In this document: piece by piece, positions 13,344-61,691 of the stretch
Position numbering within the stretch: the first letter of the stretch is position 1
How the letters are laid out: every line of letters begins with the position of its first letter
Origin: Candidatus Nealsonbacteria bacterium
GTDB lineage: Bacteria; Patescibacteriota; Minisyncoccia; Minisyncoccales; PWPS01
NCBI GenBank assembly: GCA_003551425.1
Contig: PUMP01000048.1
Coordinates: 2,825 to 66,824, forward strand
Reading direction: 5' to 3'
Length of the DNA stretch: 64,000 nt
Notes under the pieces: generated by a model
Seen by the model: only the letters and a program-made list of their open reading frames with translations
Databases searched by the model: none
Told to the model about the DNA's origin: nothing
Program-made: the position numbers and the translations under genes

Positions 13344-13344
13344 A

Positions 13345-14885: not shown

Positions 14886-14893
14886 CTTTATTA

Positions 14894-15397: not shown

Positions 15398-15445
15398 GGA
15401 GAAGAAAAGGCAGGTATGTAAGCGCTATTATACATATCTGCCTTT
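15398..15445 (+). terminator. hairpin + T-run (possible terminator of a small transcript in the ddl upstream region)
   Basis: GGCAGGTATGTAagcgctattaTACATATCTGCC followed by TTTTTGTTTT. Confidence 0.35.
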
Positions 15446-15522
15446 TTGTTTTATAATAGAAAAACTGAAAATAGAAAACAATTCTTGAGTAAAAATACTA
15501 GAGCTTAATAAAAAATCAAACC

Positions 15523-16605: not shown

Positions 16606-16624
16606 AATTATATGAAGAAAAGAT

Positions 16625-16840
16625 ATGAAAATAAACGGAACTGCAAGAAAATATATATTTCCGGGAACAGAAGTTGATATTATTTTAAAAAAAGACCAAA
16701 CTACCGGCAGGTTGACAAGAGGGATTGTAAAAGATGTATTAACAAAATCCGAAAATCATTCTCGAGGAATAAAAGTTAGACTTGAAGACGGTAGTGTAGG
16801 AAGAGTTCAAGACATAATTTCTTTTACCGGACTTGATTAG
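16625..16840 (+). CDS. YwbE-like small protein (DUF2196 family)
   Basis: 71 aa; GRLTRGIVKD.LT.S..H..GIKVRL.DG.VGRVQ matches the YwbE pattern as I recall it. Confidence 0.5.
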   Translation: MKINGTARKYIFPGTEVDIILKKDQTTGRLTRGIVKDVLTKSENHSRGIKVRLEDGSVGRVQDIISFTGLD

Positions 16841-16866
16841 CAGATATTAGTTAAAATTTTAAATAA

Positions 16867-17322
16867 ATGAAATTAATTATTTACGCATCTTTTCATCACA
16901 AGAATACGGAAAAAATTGCCAAGGAGATAGGTAATGCTTTAGGTGCGAAAGTTGTTAATTTTTTGAATGTGACAGAGGAGGAGATTAAAAAAGCGGAGCT
17001 GATTGGCTTTGGTTCCGGCGTTTATCTTTCCAAGTTTCACAAAGGTTTGGTTAAGCTGACTGAATCCTTGCCGAAAATGGAGGGAAAGAAAGCTTTTTTG
17101 TTTTCAACAAGCGGAATGAGAAGAAATATGTTTCTTAACAGATCTCACGATCATTTTAAAGATATTCTTAAGGAAAAAGGTTTTGAGATAGTGGGAGAAT
17201 TTAACTGTCTCGGATATGACACTTACGGACCACTTAAGTATATTGGAGGCGTAAATAAGGGAAGACCCAGTCAAAAAGATCTTGAAGAAGCGAAACTTTT
17301 TGCAAGAAATTTGGTGAAATAA
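16867..17322 (+). CDS. flavodoxin-family protein
   Basis: MKLIIYASFHHKNTEKIAKEI... is a flavodoxin-like (Flavodoxin_5) N-terminus, and the size fits. Confidence 0.65.
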   Translation: MKLIIYASFHHKNTEKIAKEIGNALGAKVVNFLNVTEEEIKKAELIGFGSGVYLSKFHKGLVKLTESLPKMEGKKAFLFSTSGMRRNMFLNRSHDHFKDILKEKGFEIVGEFNCLGYDTYGPLKYIGGVNKGRPSQKDLEEAKLFARNLVK

Positions 17323-17323
17323 T

Positions 17324-17725
17324 ATGGAGGAAAAAGATTCTTCAACTTTAAAACAGGAAGAGATAGAAGAAAACTTAAAAGAGCTTGAAGAGTGGAGGCT
17401 CTCATCGGACAAGAAGAAAATCTTTCGCAATTTTTATTTTAAAACCTTCCGCGAATCAATTGATTTTGTAAACGAAGCGGCTACCTTTGCCGGAAGAGTA
17501 AAGCACTATCCCGAGGTCATGATTATTCGTTTTCGGAAAATTTCGGTAAGACTTACTACCAAAAAGAGCGGGGGATTAACAGAAAAGGATTTTGCTTTAG
17601 CAAAAGAGCTTAACGCGATAGCGGGATGGAAGAGTAGATTAGAGCAACTGACTATTTCCCCCAAATTCCTTATCCCTTTCTTGATTATAGTTTTATTAAT
17701 AATACTGTGGCAGTATCTTCAATAA
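17324..17725 (+). CDS. pterin-4a-carbinolamine dehydratase (PCD/DCoH) with C-terminal TM extension
   Basis: W.L.......I.R.F.F..F..A..F...V...AE...HHPE pattern: EEWRLSSD..IFRNFYFKTFRESIDFVNEAATFAGRVKHYPEV. Confidence 0.7.
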   Translation: MEEKDSSTLKQEEIEENLKELEEWRLSSDKKKIFRNFYFKTFRESIDFVNEAATFAGRVKHYPEVMIIRFRKISVRLTTKKSGGLTEKDFALAKELNAIAGWKSRLEQLTISPKFLIPFLIIVLLIILWQYLQ

Positions 17726-24399: not shown

Positions 24400-24523
24400 A
24401 AGTACTTATAATTCTAGTAGTAATCCGCAGACAGTGGGTAGTGTGAAAATCACGTAAACACCCGCCGAGGATGAGTTAAAGAATAATAATTCTTCTTGTC
24501 TGCGTAATAAAGCAGATTTTTTT
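24400..24523 (+). promoter_or_regulatory. putative L10(L12) leader structure upstream of rplJ
   Basis: Long-range complementary arms CCGCAGACAG...CTTGTCTGCG enclose ~70 nt immediately upstream of rplJ. Confidence 0.25.
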
Positions 24524-25039
24524 ATGACTATCACCAAAGAAAAGAAAAAAGACATAATAAAAGAGCTTAGAGAAAGCATTACAAAACAAAGCGGTATTTT
24601 CTTTGTTAACTTTAAAGGCATGAAAGGGGAGAGCGCTTATCAGTTTAGAAGCGAGCTTCAAGGGGTTAATGCAAAAATGATTGTGGCAAGAAAAACTTTG
24701 GTAAAAATTGCATTTGAAAAAGAAGGGATTGCTTTTGACCCCCAATCACTTGAAGGAGAAGTAGGCTTTGTTTTTGGTTACGAAAATGGAATTGACACAG
24801 TTAAAGTGGTTAATAAATTTGTTAAAGAAGAAGCAGTTACCCTTCTTGGCGGATTTTTTGAAGGGAAATTGTTAACTTTGGAAGAAGCAAAGAGCCTTGC
24901 CGAGCTTCCTTCCAGAGAAGAGCTTATGGCGAAGCTTCTTGGTACCATGGCAGCTCCTATGAGGGACTTCTTATGTGTACTGCAAGGCAATACAAAAGGT
25001 CTTCTTTATGTTTTAGCAAACGCTAAAGAAAAAAATTAA
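24524..25039 (+). CDS. rplJ: 50S ribosomal protein L10
   Basis: L10 family N-terminus and C-terminal L12-binding helix; sits upstream of rplL. Confidence 0.9.
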   Translation: MTITKEKKKDIIKELRESITKQSGIFFVNFKGMKGESAYQFRSELQGVNAKMIVARKTLVKIAFEKEGIAFDPQSLEGEVGFVFGYENGIDTVKVVNKFVKEEAVTLLGGFFEGKLLTLEEAKSLAELPSREELMAKLLGTMAAPMRDFLCVLQGNTKGLLYVLANAKEKN

Positions 25040-44953: not shown

Positions 44954-46058
44954 ATACAGGCCGCAGAAATTTTCCGAAGTAGTAGGGCAGGAGTATGTGG
45001 TAAAAATTCTGCTTAATGCCATCTCCTCCGGAAAGGTTTCTCATGCTTATCTTTTTTGCGGGCCGAGAGGTTGCGGGAAAACTACCGTGGCTCGTCTTTT
45101 AGCTAAAGCGGTAAACTGTGAAAAGAAAGACAACCCCGATCCTTGCAATAAATGTTCTTCTTGTCTTGAAATAAAGGAAGGAAATGCCGTAGATTTAACG
45201 GAGATTGACGCGGCGTCGCACAGGGGAATTGACGAAATAAGAGAGCTTCGGGACGGGATTCGTTTTTCACCCGCGAAGCTTGATTATAAGGTAATTATCT
45301 TGGACGAGGTTCATCAGCTTACCACAGGAGCTTTCAACGCTCTTTTAAAGATGTTAGAAGAGGCGCCGTCTCACGCTATTTTTATTCTCGCCACCACGCA
45401 GCCGCAAAAAGTTATTCCTACCATTATTTCCCGTTGTCAGCGTTTTGATTTTCGCAAAATCACTGTTCCGGAGATAGTGAAAAAATTAAAGAAAATTGCG
45501 AAAAAGGAAGGGTACGAAGCCGAAGACGAAGTACTAAAGCTGATTGCGGTAGCGGCGGGAGGAGCCCTTCGTGACGCGGAAAGCCTTTTGTCACAGATGA
45601 TGTCTTTTACTTTGAAAGGTGGGGTTATAAGGAAGGAGGACGTTAAGGATCTTTTGGGAGTAATGGAGAAAAAAGTAATGAGTGATTTTATAGACTCCCT
45701 TTTGCGTCGAGACTCCGAGGGCGCGATAAAGATTATGGATGAGGTTTTCTCCCACGGTACCGATCCGGAAGACTTTTATCAAAATTTAATACACTACTTA
45801 CGTGAAATGATGGTACTAAAAATTGTCTCCGGAAGGGAAGGGACGTTTTTAGAATCTTTAATGGCCACTTTCACAAAAGAAGAAATTAAAAAAATAGAAG
45901 AGCAAACTCAAAAGATCAACGAAGAAGGAATAAGAAGAATGATTGATGTTTTCCTTCAAGCGGGGGAGAAAATAAAGTATTCTCCCATTCCTCAACTTCC
46001 CCTTGAATTGGCGGTTACGGAGATAGCGGAGGGGTCCGATGTTACGGGAAAGGGTTGA
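44928..46058 (+). CDS. dnaX: DNA polymerase III subunit gamma/tau (short form)
   Basis: YRKYRPQ.F.EVVGQE, Walker A GPRGCGKTT, a Zn module (C..C..C), and SRC (ISRCQRF). Confidence 0.85.
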   Translation: MSEIALYRKYRPQKFSEVVGQEYVVKILLNAISSGKVSHAYLFCGPRGCGKTTVARLLAKAVNCEKKDNPDPCNKCSSCLEIKEGNAVDLTEIDAASHRGIDEIRELRDGIRFSPAKLDYKVIILDEVHQLTTGAFNALLKMLEEAPSHAIFILATTQPQKVIPTIISRCQRFDFRKITVPEIVKKLKKIAKKEGYEAEDEVLKLIAVAAGGALRDAESLLSQMMSFTLKGGVIRKEDVKDLLGVMEKKVMSDFIDSLLRRDSEGAIKIMDEVFSHGTDPEDFYQNLIHYLREMMVLKIVSGREGTFLESLMATFTKEEIKKIEEQTQKINEEGIRRMIDVFLQAGEKIKYSPIPQLPLELAVTEIAEGSDVTGKG

Positions 46059-46096
46059 AGAAAAGGCAAAAATAGATTATTATAGGCGGGAGTTAA

Positions 46097-46169
46097 TGCG
46101 GGATGGTGTAATTGGTAACACGCCACGCTTTGGACGTGGAGTTTCCAGGTTCGAGTCCTGGTCCCGCAG
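46097..46169 (+). tRNA. tRNA-Gln (anticodon UUG)
   Basis: Acceptor TGCGGGA/TCCCGCA, D-stem GTGT/ACAC, anticodon stem CCACG/CGTGG with loop CTTTGGA, T-arm CCAGG-TTCGAGT-CCTGG. Confidence 0.75.
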
Positions 46170-46188
46170 CAAAGGGTAAGAGCGAAAA

Positions 46189-46217
46189 TTCTCGATAGGC
46201 TATCGAGATTTTTTTTA
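46189..46217 (+). terminator. intrinsic terminator after tRNA-Gln
   Basis: CTCGATAggcTATCGAG followed by ATTTTTTTTAT. Confidence 0.6.
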
Positions 46218-46236
46218 TGTGTTATAATGAATAAAT

Positions 46237-47160
46237 ATGAAAAAAATAAAAGACATATTAGACAGTTTTCTAATACAAGCGCAAACTGATAATCTTACAA
46301 CTGGCTCATATCCCAAAGAGTATAATGATTTAAAAATGAAAGTTTCTTTTGGAATGGGGATGCCCGCAAGAGTTCCCTGGGTTGCTTTTATTGTTCCGGA
46401 AATGCAGGTCAGTAAAGGTTTTTATCCTGTTTATTTGTATTATAAGAGCATGAATACTCTTATTCTTGCTTATGGCGTAAGTGAAACATCAGAGTTTGAT
46501 AAAACTTGGCCAGCAGAAATAATGAACTCAACTTCCACCATAGAAGGATTTTTTAATCAAGAAGTTCCCAGATATGGAGATTCTTTTGTTTTTAGAGTTT
46601 ATAAAATTAAAATAGAAAATAGAGAAGTTATTTATTCTTCTGAAGGAAATGAAGATATTTCTAGTCACGATCTCGAATCTGATTTAAATACTATTTTGGA
46701 TTACTACAAGAAAGTTGTTTTAGTTGATGCTAAGGAGAAGAGTTCTGCAATGAGTCAAGGACTATTCTACATGGAGAAACAATTAGAAGATTTTATTATT
46801 CAAAATTGGGAGAATACTGAATTAGGAAAAAAATTTGATTTAATAATTGAAGATGGAGAACTAGTAAGCCAACAGTATAGAACTGATATTGGACAGATAG
46901 ATATATTAGCAAAAGAAAGAGGAAAAGAAGGCTTTGTTGTTATTGAACTAAAGAAAGATCAGACAAGTGATGATACTATAGGACAATTGGCTCGTTATAT
47001 GGGTTGGGTCAAAAGACACAAGAGAGACGAGGGAGTGAAAGGAGTCGTTATTGCTGGACATTATGACAAAAAACTAGACTATGCTCAAGAGATGATGCCA
47101 AATATAGAAGTTTTTCTATATGAGGTAGATTTTAAACTTAAAAAATTTGGGGAAAATTAG
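46237..47160 (+). CDS. MrcB_N (DUF3578)-like N-terminal domain fused to DUF91/NucS-like PD-(D/E)XK nuclease; putative modification-dependent (type IV-like) restriction enzyme
   Basis: The N-terminus (ILDSFL..A.T.NL.TGSYPKEY..L.MKVSFGMG..ARVPWVAFI...SKGFYPVYLYY) matches the McrB N-terminal domain family pattern. The C-terminus (LEDFIIQNWE...IDILAKERGKEGFVVIELKKD...DTIGQLARYMGWV) matches the DUF91/NucS nuclease (D...ELK). Confidence 0.55.
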   Translation: MKKIKDILDSFLIQAQTDNLTTGSYPKEYNDLKMKVSFGMGMPARVPWVAFIVPEMQVSKGFYPVYLYYKSMNTLILAYGVSETSEFDKTWPAEIMNSTSTIEGFFNQEVPRYGDSFVFRVYKIKIENREVIYSSEGNEDISSHDLESDLNTILDYYKKVVLVDAKEKSSAMSQGLFYMEKQLEDFIIQNWENTELGKKFDLIIEDGELVSQQYRTDIGQIDILAKERGKEGFVVIELKKDQTSDDTIGQLARYMGWVKRHKRDEGVKGVVIAGHYDKKLDYAQEMMPNIEVFLYEVDFKLKKFGEN

Positions 47161-47269
47161 CTCTCTTCTAGTCGAAGAACTTGGCTTTTTAAAAATTATT
47201 TATAGCAAATTGCAGCCCTAAGTTTGTCCACTGTGGTCAATATGTTTAAATTCAGAAAACCATAAAGAT

Positions 47270-47806
47270 ATGCCCTATTTTGCAATTTTTATATTGATTA
47301 TTTTTTCTATACCGGCTGTAATCTTGATTTTTACTTTTTTTATATTGATTTCAAATTTTGTTAGAGAAAAAGAGAAAAAAGAAATTTTGCTCCCTTACAG
47401 AAAAAGAAACTCTCTACTATCGTTTCAAGAAAAAAAATTTTATAAAGTAATAGATAAAATAGCAGAAGACAATAATTATTTATTGTTTACAAAGGTGAGA
47501 TTGGAAGATTTATTTTGGATTCCAAAAAACATCTCTTCAAAAGAAAGATTTGGTTTGCGTAATAGAATTAAGTCTCGTCATGTTGATTTTTTGATTTGTA
47601 ATAAGGATAAAATTACTCCAATTTTAGGAATAGAGCTTGACGATTGGAGCCATGCAAGTCGTAAAGCAAAAGAAAAAGACAAATTTATTAATAAAGTTTT
47701 TACTAGCGCAAAACTTCCACTTTTAAGAATTGAAACCCAAAAATTCTACAACCCAGAATTAATTCTTGAAGAAATCAAAAACAAGACGGTAAAAACCAAA
47801 AAATAA
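47270..47806 (+). CDS. DUF2726-domain protein (restriction-endonuclease-like fold) with N-terminal TM
   Basis: EKKFYKVI....NNYLLFTKVRL....HVDFLIC.KD...ILGIELDDWSH....KDKFINKVF..AKLPLLRI matches the DUF2726 pattern. Confidence 0.5.
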   Translation: MPYFAIFILIIFSIPAVILIFTFFILISNFVREKEKKEILLPYRKRNSLLSFQEKKFYKVIDKIAEDNNYLLFTKVRLEDLFWIPKNISSKERFGLRNRIKSRHVDFLICNKDKITPILGIELDDWSHASRKAKEKDKFINKVFTSAKLPLLRIETQKFYNPELILEEIKNKTVKTKK

Positions 47807-47829
47807 AAACAATTAAAAAATAAAAAATT

Positions 47830-48090
47830 ATGGCATTAGTAAATTGTTCTGACTGCGGAAAAGAAATATCAGATAATGCAATAAAATGTGGTAATTGTGG
47901 AAATCAAAATACACCGGGGGAAAAGGGGGAAGAAAAAGAGCTTAAATCGAATATGACGAAACTTGCAGTTCTTTTTTCCATCCCTTTTTCATTAATTCTT
48001 ATTTTTTTGGCCTTACTTACTGGAGATTTTTTAATAATAGTGTTTGCAATTATTTTCGTAATAGGATTAATTATTATTGCAGCAAAATAA
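47830..48090 (+). CDS. zinc-ribbon (CxxC...CxxC) small membrane protein
   Basis: MALVNCSDCGKEISDNAIKCGNCGN followed by a C-terminal TM helix. Confidence 0.5.
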   Translation: MALVNCSDCGKEISDNAIKCGNCGNQNTPGEKGEEKELKSNMTKLAVLFSIPFSLILIFLALLTGDFLIIVFAIIFVIGLIIIAAK

Positions 48091-48220
48091 ACGAAGAAAA
48101 AATTAAAGAAATAAAAAAATAAACGATAATACTCTTTTGGTTGAGGAAATTTTTAAAGTGTTATGGTTCTAGCATCGTTCACTGTAGCCAGCATTCTTGT
48201 GCTAGTGACCGAGACGGGTA

Positions 48221-48255
48221 AGCCCTGAGATTTATTTTCAGGGTTTTTGTTTTAT
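48221..48255 (+). terminator. intrinsic terminator
   Basis: CCCTGAGAtttattTTCAGGG followed by TTTTTGTTTTAT. Confidence 0.6.
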
Positions 48256-48271
48256 GGTAAAATAAAATAAT

Positions 48272-48853
48272 ATGGCAAAAATAATACTGGCGACAACTTC
48301 TCCTTATCGAAAAAAGATATTTGAGACCTTAGGGATTCCTTTTGAAGTAGAGGGGAGCAATGTTGATGAATCGCAACTGGAAAGAAATAATCCGGAAGAA
48401 TTGGTTAAAGAGCTGGCAAAGCTGAAAGCGGAAGCAGTCGCTAGAAACCATAATGATGCCATTGTAATTGGATTTGATTCGGTTGGATACTTTAACGGAA
48501 AATTTCTTGAAAAACCAAAATCAAAAGAAGAGGCGTTTGAGAGACTGCAGTCTCTTTCGGGAGGAAACCATCAGCACTATACTGGAATTTATATAATAAA
48601 CACAAAGTCCGATAAAACGATTTCCGGCGTTGATAAGGCTGATATTTTCATGCGGGATTATTCGGACAAGGAGATAGAAGAATATCTTAAGCAGGGTTCC
48701 GAATTTAACCGCTTTGCGCTCGGGTACGACACAGAAAAGCAGATCAGCGCCTCATTTATTCAAAAGATAGAAGGAAATCATCTTAATTTAAAAGGCATTC
48801 CTTTGTCGGTCTTGGTCGAGATGTTAAGAGAAATCGGATATAAACAACAATAA
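48272..48853 (+). CDS. maf: Maf-family nucleoside triphosphate pyrophosphatase
   Basis: ILATTSPYRK..F..LGIPFEV, VIGFDSV, and the C-terminal GYD pattern of Maf/YhdE. Confidence 0.85.
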   Translation: MAKIILATTSPYRKKIFETLGIPFEVEGSNVDESQLERNNPEELVKELAKLKAEAVARNHNDAIVIGFDSVGYFNGKFLEKPKSKEEAFERLQSLSGGNHQHYTGIYIINTKSDKTISGVDKADIFMRDYSDKEIEEYLKQGSEFNRFALGYDTEKQISASFIQKIEGNHLNLKGIPLSVLVEMLREIGYKQQ

Positions 48854-48887
48854 TATAATTTAGTTGTGAATACTTGTATTGCAAAAA

Positions 48888-48914
48888 AACAGCCGAGGAG
48901 AGCCTCGGTTTTTG
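48888..48914 (+). terminator. intrinsic terminator
   Basis: CCGAGGagagCCTCGG followed by TTTTTG. Confidence 0.55.
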
Positions 48915-48995
48915 CTTAATAAGTAGATTTGGGGTAGAATATAGAAGATAATTAAACATATTTATGGGAGAAATAAAAAATAATAATTTATAAAT

Positions 48996-49454
48996 ATGGA
49001 TGATGAAATTACAATTTTAGAACTTAAAAAAATATTGCAGAAATTTAAAGAAGATAGAAACTGGGGGCAATTTCATGATCCTAAAAATTTAGCTGAAGCC
49101 ATATCAATCGAAGCAGGGGAATTACAAGAAAAATTTCTTTGGAGAACAGTTCCCGGAATTTTGGAAAAGTTGAAAAATGATAAAGAGTATAAAAAAGAGG
49201 TAGAAGATGAGTTCGCAGATATAGTAATATTTTGTTTAAATTTTGCAAATGCTACTGACATAGATATCTCTAAGGTGATAAAAGAAAAAATTAAAAAAAA
49301 CAATAAAAAATATCCCCCGGAAAAGGCAATGGGTGTTTCTGAAAAGTATAATAAACTATTATTGTTTATCAATCTACAAAAAAGGGTTTCAGTGAAGATG
49401 TTATTACTAATAGAATTGAAGAAGCAATTCTTGATATTTTTCAAAAAAAAATAG
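48996..49454 (+). CDS. MazG-like nucleotide pyrophosphohydrolase (all-alpha NTP-PPase)
   Basis: R.WGQFHDPKNLA.AISIEAGEL.E.F.W......E......EVEDEFADIVIF matches the small MazG/YpjD-type core. The metal-binding E..E and E..D residues are present. Confidence 0.6.
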   Translation: MDDEITILELKKILQKFKEDRNWGQFHDPKNLAEAISIEAGELQEKFLWRTVPGILEKLKNDKEYKKEVEDEFADIVIFCLNFANATDIDISKVIKEKIKKNNKKYPPEKAMGVSEKYNKLLLFINLQKRVSVKMLLLIELKKQFLIFFKKK

Positions 49455-49498
49455 GGAGGAGCACCTCTCCTGGTGAAGTTAATGCCTGGAAGAATTCC

Positions 49499-51211
49499 AT
49501 GATGTATATGGAAAACGTACTAAAAGATAATGAAATTCCAGAAGATTGTGGGGTTATGATTGAGTATCAGATACCTCAAACCGCGAAAAGAATAGATTTT
49601 ATATTAACTGGTCAAAATGATAAAAAAATTGATCATGCGGTTATTGTAGAGCTTAAACAATGGGAGTTTGCGGAAATAACAGAGATGGATGGTATTGTTT
49701 CCACTTTTGTAGGCAAAGCTATTCGGCCAGAACCACACCCCTCTTATCAGGCCTGGTCTTATGCTTCACTTTTAAATAATTTTAATGAGGCTGTTTATAG
49801 TGGCAATATTCAACTAAAACCCTGTGCTTATCTTCACAATTATAAAGAGCGAGATGCAATAGTAGATAATTTTTATAGCGAATATATTAAAAAAGCACCC
49901 CTTTTTTTAAGAAATGATTCATTAAAATTACGTTCATTTATTAAGAGATTTGTTAAGTATGGAGATAAGGGAAAAGTTATGTACGAAATTGAGAGTGGGA
50001 GAATAAGACCATCTAAGGGTCTTGCAGATAGTTTAGAAGGTATGTTAAGGGGAAACCAAGAGTTTGTAATGGTTGATGATCAGAAAATAGTTTATGAGAG
50101 GGCGTTACATTTAGCAAAGAAATCGAGTGATAGAAACAAGAAAGTCTTTATTATTGAGGGAGGTCCAGGCACGGGAAAATCTGTGGTAGCGATAAATTTA
50201 TTAGTTGAACTAACAAAACAAAAATTAGTAACACAGTATGTTTCAAAAAATGCAGCGCCCCGAACTGTTTATTGTAATAAGCTTACAGGCAAACACAAAA
50301 AAACGGAAATAGCAAATTTGTTTACGGGATCTGGTAGTTTTGTAAATGCAGAGGAAAATGTTTTTGATACTTTAATAGTAGATGAAGCTCATAGGCTGAA
50401 TGAAAGATCAGGACTATATGCTAATCTCGGAGAAAACCAGATAAAAGAACTGATTAACGCAGCAAAATGTACTGTCTTTTTTATTGACGAGGATCAAAAA
50501 GTGACTTTTAAGGACATCGGAGAAAAAGAAGAGATAATAAAGTGGGCAAAAATGCAAGGCGCCGACATTTACGAAGATAGTTTAGTGTCACAATTTAGGT
50601 GTAATGGATCGGATGGATATTTGGCTTGGCTTGATAATGCCTTACAAATTAGAGAGACTGCAAATAAGACACTTCAAGGTATAAATTTTGATTTTCGTAT
50701 TGTAGACTCCCCAAACAAACTCAGAGATTTGATTTTTGAAAAAAATAAAATAAACAATAAAGCAAGGTTGGTGGCAGGTTATTGCTGGGACTGGATAAGT
50801 AAAAAGGACAAAAACCTGCATGACATAGAATTTCCAGAATATAATTTTAGAATGAAATGGAACTTAGCTACAGAGGGAAGTCTTTGGATTGTATCGCCAA
50901 AATCAATCAATGAAGTTGGTTGTATTCATACTTGTCAAGGATTAGAGCTTGATTATATTGGAGTTATTGTAGGAAAAGATATGATTGTAAGAGATGGAGA
51001 GGTTTTAGTTGATCCAAGAGAGCGGGCTAAGACAGATGCTTCATTAAAAGGTTATAAAAAATTATTAGAAGAAGATGAAAAAGCTACGAAAGAAAAAGTA
51101 AGAAAAATAATCAAAAATACTTATCGAACCTTAATGACACGAGGAATGAAGGGGTGTTATGTCTATTTTGTGGATAAAGAAACAGAAGATTATTTTCGAA
51201 GTAGTGTTTAA
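49499..51211 (+). CDS. DUF2075-type protein: N-terminal PD-(D/E)XK nuclease-like domain + SF1 helicase/ATPase (Schlafen-like)
   Basis: The N-terminus (RIDFILTGQ...AVIVELKQW) is D...ELK. Walker A GGPGTGKS; DEAH-like IVDEAHRL; C-terminal GCIHTCQGLELDYIGVIVG resembles UvrD_C_2/motif VI. It starts 45 bp downstream of the MazG-like gene. Confidence 0.65.
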   Translation: MMYMENVLKDNEIPEDCGVMIEYQIPQTAKRIDFILTGQNDKKIDHAVIVELKQWEFAEITEMDGIVSTFVGKAIRPEPHPSYQAWSYASLLNNFNEAVYSGNIQLKPCAYLHNYKERDAIVDNFYSEYIKKAPLFLRNDSLKLRSFIKRFVKYGDKGKVMYEIESGRIRPSKGLADSLEGMLRGNQEFVMVDDQKIVYERALHLAKKSSDRNKKVFIIEGGPGTGKSVVAINLLVELTKQKLVTQYVSKNAAPRTVYCNKLTGKHKKTEIANLFTGSGSFVNAEENVFDTLIVDEAHRLNERSGLYANLGENQIKELINAAKCTVFFIDEDQKVTFKDIGEKEEIIKWAKMQGADIYEDSLVSQFRCNGSDGYLAWLDNALQIRETANKTLQGINFDFRIVDSPNKLRDLIFEKNKINNKARLVAGYCWDWISKKDKNLHDIEFPEYNFRMKWNLATEGSLWIVSPKSINEVGCIHTCQGLELDYIGVIVGKDMIVRDGEVLVDPRERAKTDASLKGYKKLLEEDEKATKEKVRKIIKNTYRTLMTRGMKGCYVYFVDKETEDYFRSSV

Positions 51212-51273
51212 ATAATTTAATATCAATGATAATGAAGGATATATTATCATATAAGGATATTAATAAATAAAAT

Positions 51274-51402
51274 ATGAAAAAAATAGTTCTATTAGTTATA
51301 TTTTTATTGATAGCGGGAGGTGGTTTTTTCTTCTATAGATCACATAATTACTGCAACAGGATGTATTGCAAAGCCGTAAAAAGCCCTAGAATTAAACTAT
51401 AA
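51274..51402 (+). CDS. possible small membrane peptide (42 aa, [21 protein letters not shown]...)
   Basis: Short ORF with one TM helix; weak ribosome-binding context. Confidence 0.2.
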
Positions 51403-51404
51403 AT

Positions 51405-52034
51405 ATGAACAATAAATTTTACTCTCTACCGGATTTACCCTACGGTTATAAAGATTTAGAGCCCTATATCTCGGAAGAGCAACTAAGTATTCATCATCAA
51501 AAACATCACCAAGCATACGTAAATGGTGCTAACACTGTTTTTGAAAGATTGGAAAAATCTAGGAAAGAGGGGAGTGATCTGGACATGAAAGCGACTCTCA
51601 AAGAGCTGTCCTTTCATGTAAGCGGTCATGTTTTACACTCTCTTTTTTGGCAAAATATGGCTTCTTCAAAAAAAGAAGGTGGAGGAGAGCCCTCCGGTCG
51701 GCTTGGAGAAATAATAAACGATGAATTTGGGAGCTTTGACAGATTCAAGCAAGAATTCACTAAAGCCGCCATCTCTATTGAAGGTTCCGGATGGGTAGCT
51801 TTAACACTGGACAAGGAAAGTGGAAGACCGATGATAATGCAAATTGAAAAGCATAATTTAAATTTGTATCCCGGATTTTCCCTTTTATTGGTATTTGATT
51901 TTTGGGAACACGCTTATTACCTGGATTACAAAAACGAGAAAAATAAGTTTATTGAAGCTTTTTGGCAGATTGTTAATTGGGAGGCCGCTGATAAGAGATT
52001 AAACAGATTCGACGACAAACTTGCACACTCTTAA
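51405..52034 (+). CDS. sodA: Fe/Mn superoxide dismutase
   Basis: LP.L.Y....LEP.IS......HH.KHH..YV N-terminus, and the D....WEHAYY C-terminal metal-binding motif. Confidence 0.85.
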
Positions 52035-52068
52035 TCTTGTAAAAGCCGGAAGAAGAACAAAAACAAAA

Positions 52069-53319
52069 CTAAATTCTCTCCAGTATCTCCTTAATAGTTT
52101 TCATTTTTTTGTTCTCCAGGTCTTCCTCTTTTATATTTTGAGAAACAAAAAGAGCGGTAAGAGGCTTTGTTTCTTTTCTCTTGTATTTACCGGGATAAGT
52201 ACTCTCCAAGTCTTTTTCCAAAATAAAGATCTCTCTTTTCTTTAGTTCTTCTATTTTATTATTCATACCGGTTTTCTTTCCGAAGGAGGGAAACTTTTTA
52301 ATCTTTTGAAGAGAGCTTGAGTTTAAAGCGTCACGATCGAGCATTACCGCGTAAGGAATTTGAAAGGTTTCACAAAGACTGGCGTAAATATCTACAGATC
52401 CCTTTCCACTCGTATATACAACCTTTATGTTCTTATTTTTTCTATAGAAACGGTTGATCATTTCTCGCATAAAGATGCGGTCGGAAACTCCCTCTACAAG
52501 AAGCACTTTGTCTGAGAAAAGCATTCCGGAGTTATCGTCATTGATCTCTTGTATAAAGCGCGTTATATCCACCTTTTTCTTGGAGAAACCGCAGAGAGAA
52601 GTGCTTCCTTCTTCATTTCTGAAAATACGCCATGTCTTGGGGAGGTATTTTGCTTGCACGAAAGTAGGATGATGAGTGGTAAGAAAGATTTGTTTTTTTA
52701 ATTTTTTTTCGTTTAAAATACTAAGAAACTTTTTTATCACGGAAGGATGAAGATCGATGGAAGGTTCGTCTATAAGAATTACCTTATACTGAGGGTGGAA
52801 GATATAAAAAAGGATTACGAAAAGACGCTTGAATCCGGAACCTATTCTTTTTGCCGATCTTTCTTTCTTGTCGGCATATACATTGGAGAGAAAAAGCTTT
52901 TCGCTTATCTCTACGTCCCTGAAGTTTCTTCTCAAAGAAGAGGAAAACTCTTTATAGTCCTGAGGATAATCTTTTTTAAAGCTCTTTATTTTCTTTGCTA
53001 CTTGATAATAATCTTGAGAGCTGTCGATTCTGATAAAATACTTTCTAAAATCTTGATCGGAAGAGGAATATTGACCGTGCCGATAGGAAAGGTTGTGATC
53101 TTTGCCTTTGTGGGTTAAAATGAGTTCAAGATCGGCGTCTTTGTCAGAAAATCTTTCCGGATCGGTATTATCATCGAAAAAAAGATGAATAGCGTCAAGG
53201 ATGTTCGTTTTTCCGGCATTATTGGACCCTACAAGAATTTGAAAGTCAGAGATTTCCCTAATGTGCATGGCATCTTTAATGCTTTTGTAGTGATTTATGG
53301 TTATTTCTTTTATTTTCAT
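52069..53319 (-). CDS. OLD-family (overcoming lysogenization defect) ATPase-Toprim nuclease / fused PARIS(AriAB)-like
   Basis: The N-terminus is IKEITINHYKSI...ILVGSNNAGKTNILDAI (ABC-type Walker A). Walker B is ILIDEPSIDLHP. The C-terminal Toprim has LLVEGVSD and ...MLDRD. Confidence 0.65.
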   Translation of the reverse strand: MKIKEITINHYKSIKDAMHIREISDFQILVGSNNAGKTNILDAIHLFFDDNTDPERFSDKDADLELILTHKGKDHNLSYRHGQYSSSDQDFRKYFIRIDSSQDYYQVAKKIKSFKKDYPQDYKEFSSSLRRNFRDVEISEKLFLSNVYADKKERSAKRIGSGFKRLFVILFYIFHPQYKVILIDEPSIDLHPSVIKKFLSILNEKKLKKQIFLTTHHPTFVQAKYLPKTWRIFRNEEGSTSLCGFSKKKVDITRFIQEINDDNSGMLFSDKVLLVEGVSDRIFMREMINRFYRKNKNIKVVYTSGKGSVDIYASLCETFQIPYAVMLDRDALNSSSLQKIKKFPSFGKKTGMNNKIEELKKREIFILEKDLESTYPGKYKRKETKPLTALFVSQNIKEEDLENKKMKTIKEILERI

Positions 53320-53333
53320 AGAATATTTTAATT

Positions 53334-54119
53334 ATGAATTATTTAAACTTTGCGGTAGAAACCGCGGAAAGAGCAGGGAAAGTGTTATATGATTCTTTTC
53401 GCATAAAAAGCGCAAAGAAAAGAGGAACAAGCAAAGAAGTAAAAAGTACTTTTGACAGGGTGGCGGATGATATTATTATAAGTTCCATAGAAAACAGTTT
53501 TCCCACTTACTCTTATTTTACCGAAGAAACAGGATTTGTAAAAAAAGATGACTCCCTGGTATGGGTTGTTGACCCTCTTGACGGAACCGGTAACTTTGAG
53601 AGTCATAATCCTTTCTTTTCGGTAGCGATATCTTTATGGAAAGAAGGGGAGCCGGTCGTAAGCGTTATTGAAGCTCCCGCACTGCAGGAAAGATTTTTAG
53701 CTGTAAGGAACGAAGGTGCTTTTCTTATTGATTGCAAAAGTAAAAGAAAAAAGCAAGTCAATGTTTCTTTGGTAGAGAAAAGTCAAGACGCTTACGTTGT
53801 TTTTTGTGAAGGAGGTGAAAAAGATAAGAAGCGTATTGTAGAATTTCTTTCTCGTATTTATACGAGCTCTAAAGATCTTAGAAAAATAGGATCTGCATCT
53901 CTTGAGCTCGCTTTCTTGGGAGCGGGGAGAGTAGACGGTTATATTACGTTTCAAATACCGTTCTATGATTTGGCGGCAGGACTTCTTTTTTTACAAGAGG
54001 CGGGAGGGTTGTTTTACAATTTTCAAGGAGAAAAGCTTTCTTTTAAAGACTTTCAAATAAACAAAAGTTTTGACTTTATAGCGGACAATGGAAAGATTGG
54101 GCTTGAAAGACTTGCATAA
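53334..54119 (+). CDS. inositol monophosphatase family protein (SuhB-like)
   Basis: WVVDPLDGTGNF and the IMPase fold motifs. Confidence 0.8.
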   Translation: MNYLNFAVETAERAGKVLYDSFRIKSAKKRGTSKEVKSTFDRVADDIIISSIENSFPTYSYFTEETGFVKKDDSLVWVVDPLDGTGNFESHNPFFSVAISLWKEGEPVVSVIEAPALQERFLAVRNEGAFLIDCKSKRKKQVNVSLVEKSQDAYVVFCEGGEKDKKRIVEFLSRIYTSSKDLRKIGSASLELAFLGAGRVDGYITFQIPFYDLAAGLLFLQEAGGLFYNFQGEKLSFKDFQINKSFDFIADNGKIGLERLA

Positions 54120-54177: not shown

Positions 54178-54411
54178 ATGGATAACAAGAAAATTCTTAT
54201 TGCGGTTGTATTGGTGTTAGCCGTAGTAGTTCTTGTAGGAGTTGTTTCTTTGGGCCCTGAGGAACCCATTGATCCTGAATTAGAGCTTGACCCCGAATTA
54301 GAGCTTGACCCTGAATTAGAGCTTGACGACCCTGAAGACGTAGAAGAAGAGGAAGAGGAAGAAGAGGAAGAAGAGGAAGAAGAGGAAGAAGAGGAAGAGG
54401 AAGAGCTATAA
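54178..54411 (+). CDS. membrane-anchored acidic repeat protein (PELELD x3 + poly-Glu tail)
   Basis: N-terminal TM (ILIAVVLVLAVVVLVGVV), then 18-bp repeat-encoded hexapeptides, then 30 consecutive Glu. Confidence 0.5.
   Translation: MDNKKILIAVVLVLAVVVLVGVVSLGPEEPIDPELELDPELELDPELELDDPEDVEEEEEEEEEEEEEEEEEEEEEL
54274..54405 (+). repeat. 18-bp tandem repeat x3 (CCTGAATTAGAGCTTGAC) followed by GAA/GAG microsatellite
   Basis: Copies at 54274, 54292 and 54310. The (GAR)n tract runs 54340-54405. Confidence 0.8.
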
Positions 54412-57808: not shown

Positions 57809-58486
57809 ATGGATGAGTATATTGAAGAAATAGAAGAAGAGATAGAAGAAGAGAGTTTTTTTAAGTCTTTTCCCGTCAAGGTTTTCTTTGTTGCTTTACT
57901 GATTATTTCTCTTATTTATATCTCAGGAATAAGGGAGTATTTATTTTATCAAAGGACACCGACAAGCACGAAGCTTCAAGCCCCGGAACCTCTTTTTAAG
58001 GCGGAAGAGATAATTGTTCCTGTTTCTGTTTTTGTGGTAAAAGAAGGCCCTTTTCGCTCTGAAAGAAGCAAAGAAGAGACAGAACATATTTTAAGTAACG
58101 GATTTCGCGTTTTTGTTCAAGCCAATATTGACTTTGAAGTTGTTGAATATTCTGCAATCTCTGCGGAAAGCTACAATTTTCTTTCTGATCACAGGAGTTT
58201 TCTTTCCGAAGTGGAAAAGTATGACCCGGATACGATAAATATTTTTTTGGTAGGGCATTTAAAAGGAATTAACGGCATTGCTTTTCCCGGGCTGAGCTCT
58301 CTTGCTGTGGCAGACTACGTTACTTCTCGAGATTATCGCATTCTTGCACATGAGATTGGCCATATTTTGGGTCTAGGACATAGCAGTGATCCTTTTTCCG
58401 TTATGTATCAAGGATCATACGGCGTGAACCTCTCCATGGAAAAAGCGATAAAAGCCAGAGAAAAAGCAAAGAAGTATGAACTTTAA
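57809..58486 (+). CDS. membrane-anchored zinc metalloprotease (metzincin, HExxHxxGxxH)
   Basis: AHEIGHILGLGHSSD zincin motif, a conserved Met-turn candidate (SVMY), and an N-terminal TM. Confidence 0.7.
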   Translation: MDEYIEEIEEEIEEESFFKSFPVKVFFVALLIISLIYISGIREYLFYQRTPTSTKLQAPEPLFKAEEIIVPVSVFVVKEGPFRSERSKEETEHILSNGFRVFVQANIDFEVVEYSAISAESYNFLSDHRSFLSEVEKYDPDTINIFLVGHLKGINGIAFPGLSSLAVADYVTSRDYRILAHEIGHILGLGHSSDPFSVMYQGSYGVNLSMEKAIKAREKAKKYEL

Positions 58487-61400
58487 AGAAAGATATAAAA
58501 AATTAAATAAAGAACAGCTCTCAGCGGTCGAGCATATCGAAGGCCCTTTGCTTGTAGTTGCCGGTCCCGGCTCCGGGAAAACGGAACTTTTGGGAGTAAG
58601 GGCGGCGAATATATTAAATAAAACGGACACTTCGCCAAGAAATATTCTTAATTTGACCTTTACTGACGCGGCATCTTTAAATATGAGAGAAAGGTTGATC
58701 GAGCTTATAGGAGAAGACGCTTATCGAATTCCTATAAACACGTTTCATAGTTTTTGTTTGGACATAATTGAAAGTTATCCGGAACATTTTTATAAGGGAG
58801 CTGAATTTAATCTTGCTGATGAAGTTACCAAAACCAGAATACTGGAAGATATTTTAAAAGATCTTGACAGTGATCCTTTGGCCGCAGTTCATCCCGAAAT
58901 GGGGTATGTTTATTTGGGGAGTATAAAAAATATTATTTCATTCTTGAAAGAAGAGGGCCTTCGTCCCAATGAGTTTAAGGAGATATTGGAAAAGAACAAG
59001 GAAGACCTTGAAAAGATCAATAATCTTATTGGAAAAGTCTTCGATGAACGGGTAAGTCCGGAAATGTTCTCTAAAATTGAGGCTCTTATTCCCGAACTGG
59101 AGAAAATAAGAGAGGAGTCTCTAATGATGCACTTTTATTCTCTTTCCTTTATAGTATCCAGATCACTAAAAAAAGTCATTGCTTCCGGAGACACAAGAAA
59201 ACTTTCCGAGTGGAAGCAAAAATGGACTAAAAAAGAGAAAGGGAAGCGCCTCTTTAAAGATAGTTTTTATTTAGAAAAGTCGGAAAGCATAGCCAATGTT
59301 TATGAAAAATATTTAGAAAGAATGTACAAAGAAGGTTATTATGATTTTTCCGACATGATTCTTGATGTGATAGAGGCTCTGCAAAAAAATAATGCAATGA
59401 GATATGACTTGCAAGAGAAATATCTCTACATTCAAGTTGATGAGTTTCAAGATACAAGTGGAGTGCAGATGCGCCTTTTAGACTTAATTACGAAAGACGA
59501 AGTTCACGGAAAGCCGAATATATGTGTTGTAGGAGACGATGATCAAACTATTTATCGCTTTCAAGGAGCAGAAATTTCCAATGTTTTAAATTTTAAAAAA
59601 AGATACAAGGATGCAAAAGTGATTACACTCGTTGAAAGTTACCGCTCAACGCAAGATATATTGGATGTAGCAAGAAACATTATTTTAAAAGGAGAAGAGA
59701 GATTGGAAGGAATGTTTCCTGATATAAGGAAGGACCTTATATCCAAACAAAAAGGCAAAAAGGGACAAATAACGGGAAAGGCTTTTAGAACGAAAGAAGA
59801 AGAGTTTTCTTATGTTGCAGGGGAGGTCAAGCAAAAAATAAAAGAAGGAATAAAGCCCGAGGAAATCGCCGTAGTGGCGAGAACGCATAATACTCTAAAA
59901 GAGATCTCTCCCTACTTTAAAGCGCTTCAAGTTCCCGTTTCCACGGAAAGAAGAGAAAACGTCTTAGAGAAAAAACACGTAAAAGAGGTGATAGGGGTTA
60001 TAAGATTTTCTAGTCTTTTGCTTGAAGGAAACAGCAAAAAAGCGGAAGAGCTTTTACCGGATATTCTTAGTTATTCTTTTTGGGGCATAAAGAGAGAAAA
60101 AATTTGGGAAGTTGCAGTTAAAAGTTACGATGAAAGAAAATCTTGGATGGAGTGTATAAGAGAGGACAAAGAGCTTAAAAAAATAGGAGACTTTTTACTT
60201 GATCTCTCTCTTCGAGCGAGAAATGCTCCGGCGGAAGAAATAATCGATATCGTTACGGGAAGCAAGAAAGGGACAATGAAGAGTCCTTTTAAAGATTTTT
60301 ATTTTGGAAAGAATACTTTTAAAGAAAAGAAGGGGGAATATTTAAATTTTTTATCTTCCTTGAAAAGATTTATAAAAGCCGTAAGAGAGCACGAAAACGG
60401 AAAGATGATCAAAGTGAAAGAATTATTGGATTTTGTGGATCTTCATGAAAACAACAATATACCTATTTTAGACAAGAGCCCACTTGTTGCGGAAAAAGAC
60501 ACCGTTTCTTTGGCTACCGCTCATAGTGTAAAGGGAAAAGAGTTTGATGCGGTCTTTGTCTTAAATTGCCAAGAAGAGGTATGGGGGAAACAAAGAAGGT
60601 ATGAGAAGATGATACTTCCCTCGAATCTTCCGCTACAAAGAGCTGCGGAAGATCGTGATGACCAGTTGCGACTCTTTTATGTGACTTTTACCAGAGCAAA
60701 GAGGTTTCTTTACTTTACTTTGTATAAGGAAAAAGAAGACGGCAAGGGTTTTACGCCGCTTGAATTTATAGAAGGCATAGGATTTAATGAGGAAGAATGC
60801 GAGGTGGACAAAGAGGCGATATCTTCTTTTAGCGAGACTCTTTCTCCCATTTCTTTTTTAAAGAATGAAGAAAAATTGCTTCTTCCGTTGGTGAAGGATT
60901 ATAAGCTTAGTGCAACCGGATTTACCAAGTTTTTAAATATTGTTGAAGAGGGCCCTCAAAGCTTTATAGAAGACTCTTTACTTCGTTTCCCCAAAAAGAA
61001 GACCTTATCTCTTTCTTACGGTACCGCCGTCCATAACAGCATCAAGGATCTTTATATAAAACTAAAAAACGAAGGAAGATTGATAAAGAAAAAGGAGTTC
61101 CTGGATTCTTTTGTCAGTTTTTTAAAGAAAGAACGTATTTCTGAGAAAGACTTTCAGAAAATAGAAAAAAGGGGAAGAGAAGCTTTGTCCCTTTTTTACG
61201 CCAAAAGAAAAAATAGCTTTTCTTTAGAGCATGAAATAGAAAGAAACTTTAAAAATCAAGGATGTCAAATTGAGGGAATTGACATTACGGGGCAGATAGA
61301 TAAGATTATCAAGGAGGGAGATAAAATAGAAGTAATTGATTTTAAAACAGGGATTCCTCTTAAAAAATGGAATGAAAAAGGAAAATATAACGAGATAAAG

Positions 61401-61691
61401 TCCTGGAAATACAGGTATCAGCTTGTTTTTTATAAACTGCTTATTGAAACTTCGCGAGATTTTGAGGGTTATGATGTCTCTTCCGGTACATTGGAATTTG
61501 TGGAGCCTTCCGAAGACAAAGAGATCATTACACTTAGCCTGGAGATCGAGAAAAAAGAAACGGAGAGAGTAATCTCTCTTATAAAAGAAGTAGGGGAGAG
61601 AATTAAAAACTTGGATTTTCCGGACCTAAAGGTCAATAAATTCAAAGAAATTAGGGAGTTTGAAGAAAATTTATTAAATAAAAAAATATGA
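58476..61691 (+). CDS. UvrD/PcrA-type SF1 helicase with C-terminal RecB-family (PD-(D/E)XK) nuclease domain (AddA-like)
   Basis: LNKEQL.AV....GPLLVVAGPGSGKT (UvrD motifs I-VI). The C-terminal region (GQIDKI..EGDKIEVIDFKTG...Y..QL.FY) is the RecB nuclease motif. Confidence 0.75.
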   Translation: MNFKERYKKLNKEQLSAVEHIEGPLLVVAGPGSGKTELLGVRAANILNKTDTSPRNILNLTFTDAASLNMRERLIELIGEDAYRIPINTFHSFCLDIIESYPEHFYKGAEFNLADEVTKTRILEDILKDLDSDPLAAVHPEMGYVYLGSIKNIISFLKEEGLRPNEFKEILEKNKEDLEKINNLIGKVFDERVSPEMFSKIEALIPELEKIREESLMMHFYSLSFIVSRSLKKVIASGDTRKLSEWKQKWTKKEKGKRLFKDSFYLEKSESIANVYEKYLERMYKEGYYDFSDMILDVIEALQKNNAMRYDLQEKYLYIQVDEFQDTSGVQMRLLDLITKDEVHGKPNICVVGDDDQTIYRFQGAEISNVLNFKKRYKDAKVITLVESYRSTQDILDVARNIILKGEERLEGMFPDIRKDLISKQKGKKGQITGKAFRTKEEEFSYVAGEVKQKIKEGIKPEEIAVVARTHNTLKEISPYFKALQVPVSTERRENVLEKKHVKEVIGVIRFSSLLLEGNSKKAEELLPDILSYSFWGIKREKIWEVAVKSYDERKSWMECIREDKELKKIGDFLLDLSLRARNAPAEEIIDIVTGSKKGTMKSPFKDFYFGKNTFKEKKGEYLNFLSSLKRFIKAVREHENGKMIKVKELLDFVDLHENNNIPILDKSPLVAEKDTVSLATAHSVKGKEFDAVFVLNCQEEVWGKQRRYEKMILPSNLPLQRAAEDRDDQLRLFYVTFTRAKRFLYFTLYKEKEDGKGFTPLEFIEGIGFNEEECEVDKEAISSFSETLSPISFLKNEEKLLLPLVKDYKLSATGFTKFLNIVEEGPQSFIEDSLLRFPKKKTLSLSYGTAVHNSIKDLYIKLKNEGRLIKKKEFLDSFVSFLKKERISEKDFQKIEKRGREALSLFYAKRKNSFSLEHEIERNFKNQGCQIEGIDITGQIDKIIKEGDKIEVIDFKTGIPLKKWNEKGKYNEIKSWKYRYQLVFYKLLIETSRDFEGYDVSSGTLEFVEPSEDKEIITLSLEIEKKETERVISLIKEVGERIKNLDFPDLKVNKFKEIREFEENLLNKKI

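Follow-up and report, generated by a model that had tools for sequence, protein, structure and literature searches.

Gene content downstream of the tRNA-Gln gene

The genome of a Candidatus Nealsonbacteria bacterium (Patescibacteriota; assembly GCA_003551425.1) carries, directly after a tRNA-Gln gene on contig PUMP01000048.1, a 7.2-kb run of eight protein-coding genes that includes a MazG-like pyrophosphatase gene coupled to a DUF2075 nuclease-helicase gene (hereafter the MazG–DUF2075 pair). This block was analyzed within a stretch of 64,000 nucleotides of the contig (positions 2,825 to 66,824; the window), to which all coordinates below refer unless another contig is named. An original prediction had taken the whole block for one stacked anti-phage island. 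The tRNA and all the genes listed there were recovered at their positions and in their order (ARAGORN, Rfam, list of open reading frames (ORFs)), and the domain assignments were confirmed above curated thresholds, the Pfam zinc-ribbon matches of one small protein lying slightly under the cut-offs.

On the forward strand, the tRNA-Gln gene (anticodon TTG, 46097-46170; ARAGORN, and Rfam at 66.8 bits) is followed by a gene for a 307-aa fusion of a McrB-N reader domain and a NucS/YhcG-like PD-(D/E)XK nuclease (46237-47160), one for a DUF2726 protein with a Vsr/MTES_1575-like nuclease fold and a hydrophobic N-terminal segment (47270-47806), one for a small zinc-ribbon protein that is hydrophobic in its C-terminal half (47830-48090), maf, coding for a nucleotide pyrophosphatase (48272-48853), the MazG-like gene (48996-49361 in its ancestral form, to 49454 in the record), the DUF2075 gene (49358-51211 as a full frame of 617 codons; 49499-51211, 570 aa, in the record) and sodA, coding for an Fe/Mn superoxide dismutase (51405-52034; Pfam Sod_Fe_N and Sod_Fe_C). 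A stand-alone OLD-family ATPase–Toprim nuclease of 416 aa is encoded on the reverse strand (52069-53319). Hairpins resembling terminators, identified by a consensus scan alone, lie 3' of the tRNA (46190-46208, forward strand), of the zinc-ribbon gene (48220-48246, forward strand) and of maf (48891-48910), and part the units from one another. The housekeeping phosphatase predicted on the right flank is indeed present outside the cluster, as an inositol-monophosphatase family gene (53334-54119, forward strand; Pfam Inositol_P, 154 bits), in the company of further housekeeping-type genes (an AP endonuclease-type TIM barrel, an AddA-like UvrD helicase-nuclease and a member of the amino-acid-kinase family).

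The defence role ascribed to all of these genes holds only in part. PADLOC returned matches to PDC-S02 (E-value 5e-46), to Old (2.2e-32) and, partially, to Nhi (4.9e-12), in keeping with predicted defence functions for the McrB-N fusion, the OLD protein and the DUF2075 protein, respectively. By contrast, maf and sodA are housekeeping-like, and neither the DUF2726 nor the zinc-ribbon protein has a PADLOC match or could otherwise be linked to defence.

Composition of the block and the island question

GC content at third codon positions (GC3) was compared with a background of 0.348 ± 0.042, z being computed against the window's other 54 genes. Values are low for five of the eight block genes (0.195-0.241; z -2.5 to -3.6), namely those for the McrB-N fusion (0.227, z -2.8), the DUF2726 protein (0.223), the zinc-ribbon protein (0.195, z -3.6), the MazG-like protein and the DUF2075 protein (0.241), while maf (0.376, z +0.7), sodA (0.362) and the OLD gene (0.391) are host-like (0.36-0.39). 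The compositional shift that the original prediction had proposed as a check is therefore present, but only in these five genes. They form two inserts of low GC3, 46237-48090 and 48996-51211, with host-like maf between them and sodA and the OLD gene after the second.

Among the features expected of a tRNA-linked integrative island, presence/absence variation and deviant composition were found; an integrase and a tRNA 3' repeat were not. A Pfam scan of the block ORFs detected no integrase or recombinase domain, no copy of the tRNA-Gln 3' end (22 nt, up to 3 mismatches) other than the tRNA itself occurs within the 64-kb window, and a search of 45900-53500 for direct or inverted repeats of the attachment-site type yielded only A/T-rich chance repeats. 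The modules are also found apart: no other gene of the block accompanies the MazG–DUF2075 pair in 80 loci examined, and the McrB-N fusion occurs solo. Because GC3 splits the block, the modules occur independently and both integrase and tRNA-derived repeat are lacking, the block is not one island. These 7.2 kb probably represent a mosaic accessory stretch, assembled piecemeal at a recombination-prone junction and holding three independent defence-type units along with other genes. The best reading of its architecture is that of two separate foreign insertions around a resident maf, after which come sodA, likewise resident, and an OLD gene whose composition is host-like.

A conserved junction with variable content downstream

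The tRNA-Gln gene marks the point where conserved synteny stops. Gene order is conserved from about 37 kb of the window up to the DnaX–tRNA-Gln junction in about 30 relatives, with some ten genes ahead of DnaX (including those for DnaB, CysS and a small-multidrug-export-family protein) being syntenic, and tRNA-Gln(ttg) lies right after DnaX in 29 of the 30 relatives inspected. These relatives are distant, the window DnaX being at most 66% identical to those of Candidatus Nealsonbacteria and other Patescibacteria MAGs (metagenome-assembled genomes). None of the window genes 3' of the tRNA, the phosphatase and AP endonuclease included, occurs within 10 kb downstream in any relative compared. In this synteny comparison, which the original prediction had suggested, the downstream content thus differs in all relatives. 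These results support the view that accessory DNA without synteny lies here at a DnaX–tRNA-Gln junction that is itself conserved.

In 25 relatives, the genes 3' of tRNA-Gln code for transporters, regulators, a few restriction-modification (R-M) proteins and two ATPase-Toprim proteins, and are mostly unrelated to defence; the junction is therefore variable and not dedicated to defence, and a role of tRNA-Gln as a general defence hotspot was rejected on the same grounds. The same arrangement of DnaX and tRNA-Gln(ttg) is found in a second Patescibacteria genome (GCA_036681025.1, contig JAXDEL011872140.1; hereafter L183), where a defence stack unlike that of the window lies directly 3' of the junction (2359-17433 of that contig). 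It consists, in order, of an OLD/AriA-like ATPase, a PDC-M30A candidate, a radical-SAM protein, a MazG–DUF2075 pair, a MkoC/Hhe-like helicase-nuclease of 1124 aa, an Mrr-type protein and a PDC-S02 nuclease. The MazG–DUF2075 pair of L183 is 82% identical to that of the window, while DnaX is only 53% identical.

The two proteins of the MazG–DUF2075 pair

The first gene of the pair codes for a DCTPP1-type all-alpha nucleoside triphosphate (NTP) pyrophosphohydrolase of family PF12643 (59.2 bits, cut-off 27; 4.7e-16), whose best relatives are PDB 4qgp (2e-18) and mammalian dCTP pyrophosphatase 1 (1.9e-13). Residues E39, E42, E45, E72 and D75 are invariant in 51 MazG partner sequences whose overall identity is no more than about 40%, and this invariance of the metal site argues for a working enzyme.

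The second gene codes for a PD-(D/E)XK nuclease joined to a superfamily 1B (SF1B) helicase (SLFN-g3_helicase PF09848, 6.8e-109). D80, E98 and K100 of the nuclease motif, as well as GGPGTGKS and DEAHR of the helicase, are invariant in the alignment, and an AlphaFold model (predicted local distance difference test, pLDDT, of 84) places the nuclease motif in consecutive strands (78-86 and 92-100). Since a sequence search of solved structures with the DUF2075 protein returned no match, a fold search was needed, and Foldseek gave as best matches human SLFN11, RecD2, the Dna2 nuclease-helicase, SLFN14, Upf1 and Dda. Homologues are 617-621 aa long, not 570, are 65-83% identical and start with MIVYQSTK; exact look-ups of the 570-aa product of the record, and of Maf, found no match.

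This difference in length, and the 45-bp spacing that the original prediction had noted between the two genes, are literal in the record and are both caused by one base. Position 49360 lies inside an ancestral ATGA stop/start overlap and is T in the record and G in an independent assembly, so that the window reads ctaTTAtt where the ancestral sequence is ctaTGAtt. The T abolishes the MazG stop, extending the ORF by 31 codons (from 121 to 152 aa), and turns the DUF2075 ATG into ATT, whereby the annotated ORF has 570 instead of 617 aa. The window still encodes a MIVYQSTK-type N-terminus in frame from 49358, with ATT as first codon, a start used by DUF2075 at no other of 77 loci with a readable start. 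The independent assembly is a Logan contig of the same population (run SRR490150; L187), found by exact look-up of the superoxide dismutase protein; it matches the window at 6,052 of 6,053 nt between 48320 and 54372, the sole mismatch being the G at 49360, and encodes a 121-aa MazG and a 617-aa DUF2075 protein. The T either reflects a polymorphism between strains or is an error in the consensus, and the window copy is accordingly either attenuated or mis-called. One base within a 4-nt gene overlap can thus reshape two gene models of a deposited MAG.

Linkage, spread and neighbours of the pair

The context of the pair was counted in 80 metagenome loci carrying this DUF2075 family. MazG is encoded directly upstream and on the same strand in 58 of these loci, and nearby in five more. 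The distance from MazG stop to DUF2075 start ranges from -4 to +38 nt in the 58 loci, the ATGA overlap being found in 12 of them. No MazG was detected in 12 of the approximately 75 DUF2075 loci that could be evaluated (at least 1 kb of upstream sequence). The pair is present in both bacteria and archaea, including plasmids of Halalkalicoccus (archaea) and Priestia, and DUF2075 genes of its family also lie on replicons of Hymenobacter, Halomonas and Methanosphaera; identity to the copies of Bacteroidota, Bacillota and archaea is 47-58%. A total of 69 Bacillus plasmid records matched the query, and in the one inspected (B. thuringiensis plasmid NZ_CP083117.1, 1212-4803; L188) genes for an NTP pyrophosphohydrolase, an HNH endonuclease and a DUF2075 protein only 25% identical to that of the window follow one another in this order in one operon. 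A phage origin of the pair was rejected, as it is rare in phages: no more than 4 records out of 50,697 match it, and IMG/VR yielded no match.

Recurrent neighbours of the pair are a giant type IV enzyme combining methyltransferase, phospholipase D, helicase, S24 and DUF3427 domains, encoded alongside HNH (11 loci), another DUF2075 paralogue (six loci), RadC (four loci) and SIR2-HerA (two members); transposases are found as well. The proximity of DUF2075 NTPases to DUF3427 enzymes has already been noted by Lutz et al. 2019 (PMC6765204). A tetratricopeptide-repeat (TPR) protein of 216-691 aa is encoded directly upstream of MazG at 9 of the 80 loci (including L089, L102, L107, L111 and L113) and may be a third component in this subset. 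The Priestia plasmid has a DUF3578 (McrB-N-type) gene that extends over the start of MazG, in a cluster that also contains R-M genes and an ABC-three-component-system gene; we take this DUF3578–MazG–DUF2075 operon as a thematic hint only. The McrB-N fusion of the window was considered as a part of the pair and rejected, the Priestia DUF3578 protein being barely similar to it and no such gene accompanying the pair in the 80 loci. Modified-cytosine readers are repeatedly found close to the pair, which is suggestive.

Two further arrangements were observed. At three loci from Joint Genome Institute metagenomes (about 2880-7610; L184-L186), where the pair is 83% identical, a LexA_DNA_bind–Peptidase_S24–C5 DNA methylase fusion is encoded divergently upstream, and the start of an HD-domain protein gene overlaps the DUF2075 3' end by about 55 nt. 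On a Hymenobacter canadensis plasmid (NZ_CP114769.1, 5350-9987; L161), two DUF2075 genes stand in tandem with a gene for a 207-aa Pfam-less protein in the place of MazG, adjoining a DUF4747 gene, a DNA methyltransferase gene and one for a BPTD_3080-family restriction endonuclease.

The pair did not entirely escape earlier attention. The original prediction held that several gene combinations of the block lie outside named defence systems, and the MazG–DUF2075 pair does fit no named validated system; it is nevertheless already present as the candidate "Pyrophosphatase" (SG192 and SG193) in Millman et al. 2022, Table S2 (bioRxiv 10.1101/2022.05.11.491447). The entry SG192, from Bacillus firmus LK28, has a pyrophosphatase of 98 aa and, after it, a DUF2075 protein of 643 aa, and SG193, from B. 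thuringiensis Lr3/2, is marked "Cloning failed". In that study, 45 candidates with their native promoters are described as having been introduced into E. coli and B. subtilis and challenged with 26 phages (Millman et al. 2022). In the searchable library, no literature linking DUF2075, or Nhi-like proteins, with MazG was found, the only link coming from this supplementary table.

The McrB-N–nuclease fusion and its insert

Both domains of the 307-aa protein predicted as an MrcB_N and NucS-nuclease fusion score above their Pfam cut-offs (MrcB_N 37.2 bits, cut-off 25; NucS_C 47.7 bits, cut-off 24), the reader occupying approximately residues 1-160 and the nuclease 165-303. Residues 2-108 align to the N-domain of EcoKMcrB (PDB 3ssc, 4e-19) and keep the equivalents of W49, Y64 and L68, which we take to line the pocket for the flipped 5-methylcytosine; the equivalent of Y41 is Met. 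The C-terminal half carries an IDIL…IELK motif of the NucS/YhcG-like PD-(D/E)XK type. The NCBIfam McrB model matches the N-terminal part only (2e-20, 72.9 bits against a cut-off of 637 bits), and the NCBIfam NucS models reach no more than 47.6 and 37.1 bits, their cut-offs being 216 and 252, with the NucS N-terminal domain unmatched; being below the equivalog thresholds of both, the fusion is neither McrB nor NucS. From these similarities we infer a modified-base reader fused to a nuclease, which would follow the logic of a type IV restriction enzyme, as originally proposed. The McrB-N-type domain would recognise modified cytosine, and the fused nuclease would cut the DNA containing it, standing in for the McrB GTPase and McrC.

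Members of the fusion family are about 307 aa long and 62-81% identical, and occur in bacteria of the candidate phyla radiation (CPR), DPANN archaea, Spirochaetes, Syntrophorhabdaceae and others, as solo genes often adjoining an integrase. A relative in L183 shares the same nuclease (46% identical) and has another N-terminal domain. One identical 307-aa protein of this kind (P0137) was found in 34 blocks, the contexts examined (L166-L175) being mostly marine-metagenome contigs, in none of which it occurs with DUF2726; several have a phage-type integrase gene or a conserved gene for a 194-aa protein without known function just upstream, which suggests recent mobility.

The other two genes of this insert are best explained as mobile-element cargo. 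The DUF2726 protein (Pfam, 2.3e-27) also matches phrog_14167 (5e-13), and its relatives in Patescibacteria sit in elements with a serine recombinase and a rolling-circle Rep protein (REP_ORF2-G2P). Some DUF2726 relatives carry a fused topoisomerase-type zinc finger; a conserved pairing of DUF2726 with the zinc-ribbon protein was rejected, as DUF2726 relatives have other neighbours.

maf, sodA and the OLD nuclease

The maf gene (Pfam Maf 160 bits, 5.7e-47; TIGR00172 141 bits, cut-off 117) is, given its host-like composition, probably a resident housekeeping gene, and maf and sodA both look like such residents. In the OLD protein (AAA_15/AAA_21 plus an OLD-like TOPRIM domain), Walker A (GSNNAGKT) and Walker B (LIDEP) are intact, as are the E and DxD motifs of Toprim; its best PDB match is 6p74 (4.6e-12), GajA reaching only 4e-5. 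It is flanked by the convergent superoxide dismutase gene and the divergent phosphatase gene, so that neither a helicase nor a retron nor an AriB-type partner adjoins it. The nearest UvrD-type helicase (58476-61691), which is AddA-like and carries a PDDEXK_1 nuclease at its C-terminus, was considered as a GajB-like partner and rejected, as it lies 5 kb away and has the AddA architecture. The protein fits a putative stand-alone, class-1-like OLD nuclease, which would act against phage. Its host-like composition suggests that it has long been resident.

Two features elsewhere in the window were also recorded. A 77-aa ORF at 54178-54411 is hydrophobic at its N-terminus, repeats PELELD three times and has a stretch of about 24 glutamates at its C-terminus; it matches no family to our knowledge. 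A ribosomal protein L10 leader (24407-24531; Rfam, 51.8 bits, gathering score 44) lies upstream of an ORF at 24524-25039, within a run of short same-strand ORFs.

Possible functions of the pair and significance of the locus

The domain evidence supports the assignment of three units, the McrB-N–nuclease fusion, the DUF2075 nuclease-helicase and the OLD nuclease, to families predicted to be of defence type. The genomes of Patescibacteria are very small and commonly regarded as poor in defence genes; three such units within 7 kb, together with the other use of the same junction in L183, indicate that organisms with reduced genomes still trade defence modules.

The MazG–DUF2075 pair combines a conserved gene order and stop/start coupling with two conserved catalytic centres and horizontal spread, and ranks among the more strongly conserved and widely transferred pairs without demonstrated function (47-83% identity across CPR, Bacillota, Bacteroidota and archaea). 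In the reading favoured here, the DUF2075 helicase-nuclease would degrade replicating foreign DNA, as Nhi does, and the pyrophosphatase would hydrolyse dCTP or 5-modified dCTP, either starving modified-cytosine phages or tuning its nuclease partner. It is possible, and we propose it only tentatively, that the pair is a genuine and widespread two-enzyme immune system of bacteria and archaea, coupling the destruction of foreign DNA with the hydrolysis of dCTP or 5-modified dCTP. If this is true, the pair would work mainly against modified-cytosine phages, which would explain its recurrence beside DUF3427 type IV enzymes, DUF3578/McrB-N and Mrr, and also the lack of protection in the 2022 screen, whose phage panel or host was possibly unsuitable. 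It would further join DCTPP1-type nucleotide-pool enzymology with Schlafen-type helicases, both of which have human counterparts in antiviral defence or genome surveillance.

Several points weigh against this immune reading, or against the mosaic reading of the locus as a whole. SG192 is marked 'x' in Table S2, where Nhi-like, which is verified, is marked 'v', and 'x' is read here as no protection (10.1101/2022.05.11.491447). The MazG partner is not obligatory, since it is undetectable at 12 of the approximately 75 evaluable loci, and the neighbours of the pair are heterogeneous, their counts standing without a background rate for defence genes. The defence roles of all block genes are predictions, and both the dCTP substrate and the link to modified cytosine are suggested by similarity and by scattered neighbourhoods. 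The OLD gene, being host-like in composition, may be an old resident with another role, and, as the relatives compared are distant, the break in synteny may reflect general rearrangement instead of a hotspot.

Maf and DCTPP1-type enzymes are classical house-cleaning NTPases, and maf lies 143 nt upstream of the pair. The two, with maf, could accordingly serve housekeeping, combining nucleotide-pool sanitation with a repair or replication helicase-nuclease and having no part in immunity, an idea that gains from the resemblance of the DUF2075 fold to the replication and repair nuclease-helicase Dna2, and from the 'x' of SG192, if read as not verified (Millman et al. 2022). It is unlikely, however, in view of the foreign GC3 of the pair beside a host-like maf, the absence of maf from all 80 loci with the pair, and neighbours such as type IV enzymes, R-M genes, SIR2-HerA and transposases. 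Plasmid carriage and a patchy distribution with high identity across domains (82% with L183 against 53% for DnaX; 47-58% with Bacteroidota, Bacillota and archaea) likewise speak against housekeeping.

Carriage on plasmids and beside transposases would also suit a selfish addiction or toxin-control module, in which a toxic nuclease-helicase is restrained by the pyrophosphatase and persistence accounts for spread. Such tight coupling in translation is characteristic of two-gene modules for toxin control, and a start-codon lesion in the nuclease-helicase, as in the window allele, is expected of a costly gene. We nevertheless consider such a module quite improbable: the strict conservation of the MazG catalytic residues argues for an enzymatic role and not for a purely steric antitoxin, about 15% of the family DUF2075 genes have no MazG, and the failure to clone SG193 (Millman et al. 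2022) is favourable yet weak evidence.

Finally, that the whole block integrated at tRNA-Gln as one coherent island whose genes cooperate as a stacked system, as the original prediction had it, is very unlikely, for although it starts directly after a tRNA gene, holds four nuclease-type genes in 7 kb and shares its junction with the defence stack of L183, it has neither integrase or recombinase nor a copied tRNA 3' end, GC3 separates its foreign from its host-like genes, terminator-like hairpins stand between its units and every module is found elsewhere without the others.

The mosaic reading of the locus is thus retained: the cluster is real, piecemeal and mostly made of known or already proposed families, and the pyrophosphatase–nuclease-helicase operon is the part worth experiment.

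Comparison with known systems

Like EcoKMcrBC, the McrB-N fusion has a McrB DNA-binding domain, to which its first 108 residues align; unlike it, it has no AAA+ GTPase domain, its nuclease is fused, and its neighbours are unrelated genes, with no McrC among them. It differs from NucS/EndoMS in matching NucS_C only and in scoring far under the NucS equivalog cut-offs. Its nuclease half matches the profiles of PDC-S02 (models PDLC04824, 5e-46, and PDLC04799, 8e-38; residues 148-303 only), whereas the McrB-N half lies outside the alignment, PDC-S02 itself being a computational candidate.

The OLD protein resembles class 1 OLD enzymes (P2 Old; PDB 6p74, presumably the Thermus scotoductus OLD enzyme) in that an ABC-type ATPase and a Toprim domain stand alone, and is shorter (416 aa, against 528 aa for 6p74 and 578 positions for the PADLOC Old profile). 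Unlike Gabija, it has no GajB UvrD-like helicase adjoining it.

Within the pair, the MazG-like protein belongs to the same all-alpha MazG fold family as DCTPP1/RS21-C6 (1.9e-13) and has its motifs W-x-QFH-x-P-x-NL and EXXE…EXXD, while being bacterial and operon-coupled to a nuclease-helicase. The DUF2075 protein, with an N-terminal PD-(D/E)XK nuclease and a DUF2075 SF1-type helicase in one chain, has the architecture of Nhi from S. epidermidis (Bari et al.) and of the B. cereus Nhi-like entry SG141 (Millman et al. 2022), in which nuclease and DUF2075 are likewise united in a single gene. The alignment to SG141 is weak (19% identity, E 0.017) and collinear through the nuclease motif and Walker A, and the PADLOC Nhi model matches residues 206-348 only (4.9e-12). 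Nhi and Nhi-like are single-gene systems, whereas in about 80% of loci the family found in the window comes with a coupled pyrophosphatase. The closest likeness is to SG192, which has the same two genes in the same order, the pyrophosphatase preceding a DUF2075 protein of the MI(V/I)Y… family, the window DUF2075 protein being 58% identical over the 399 residues available (3e-167) and the pyrophosphatase 37% (2e-21); the window copy differs in belonging to a Patescibacteria genome and in its start/stop lesion. The MazG–DUF2075 pair is an already noticed, defence-island-associated candidate, neither named nor validated.

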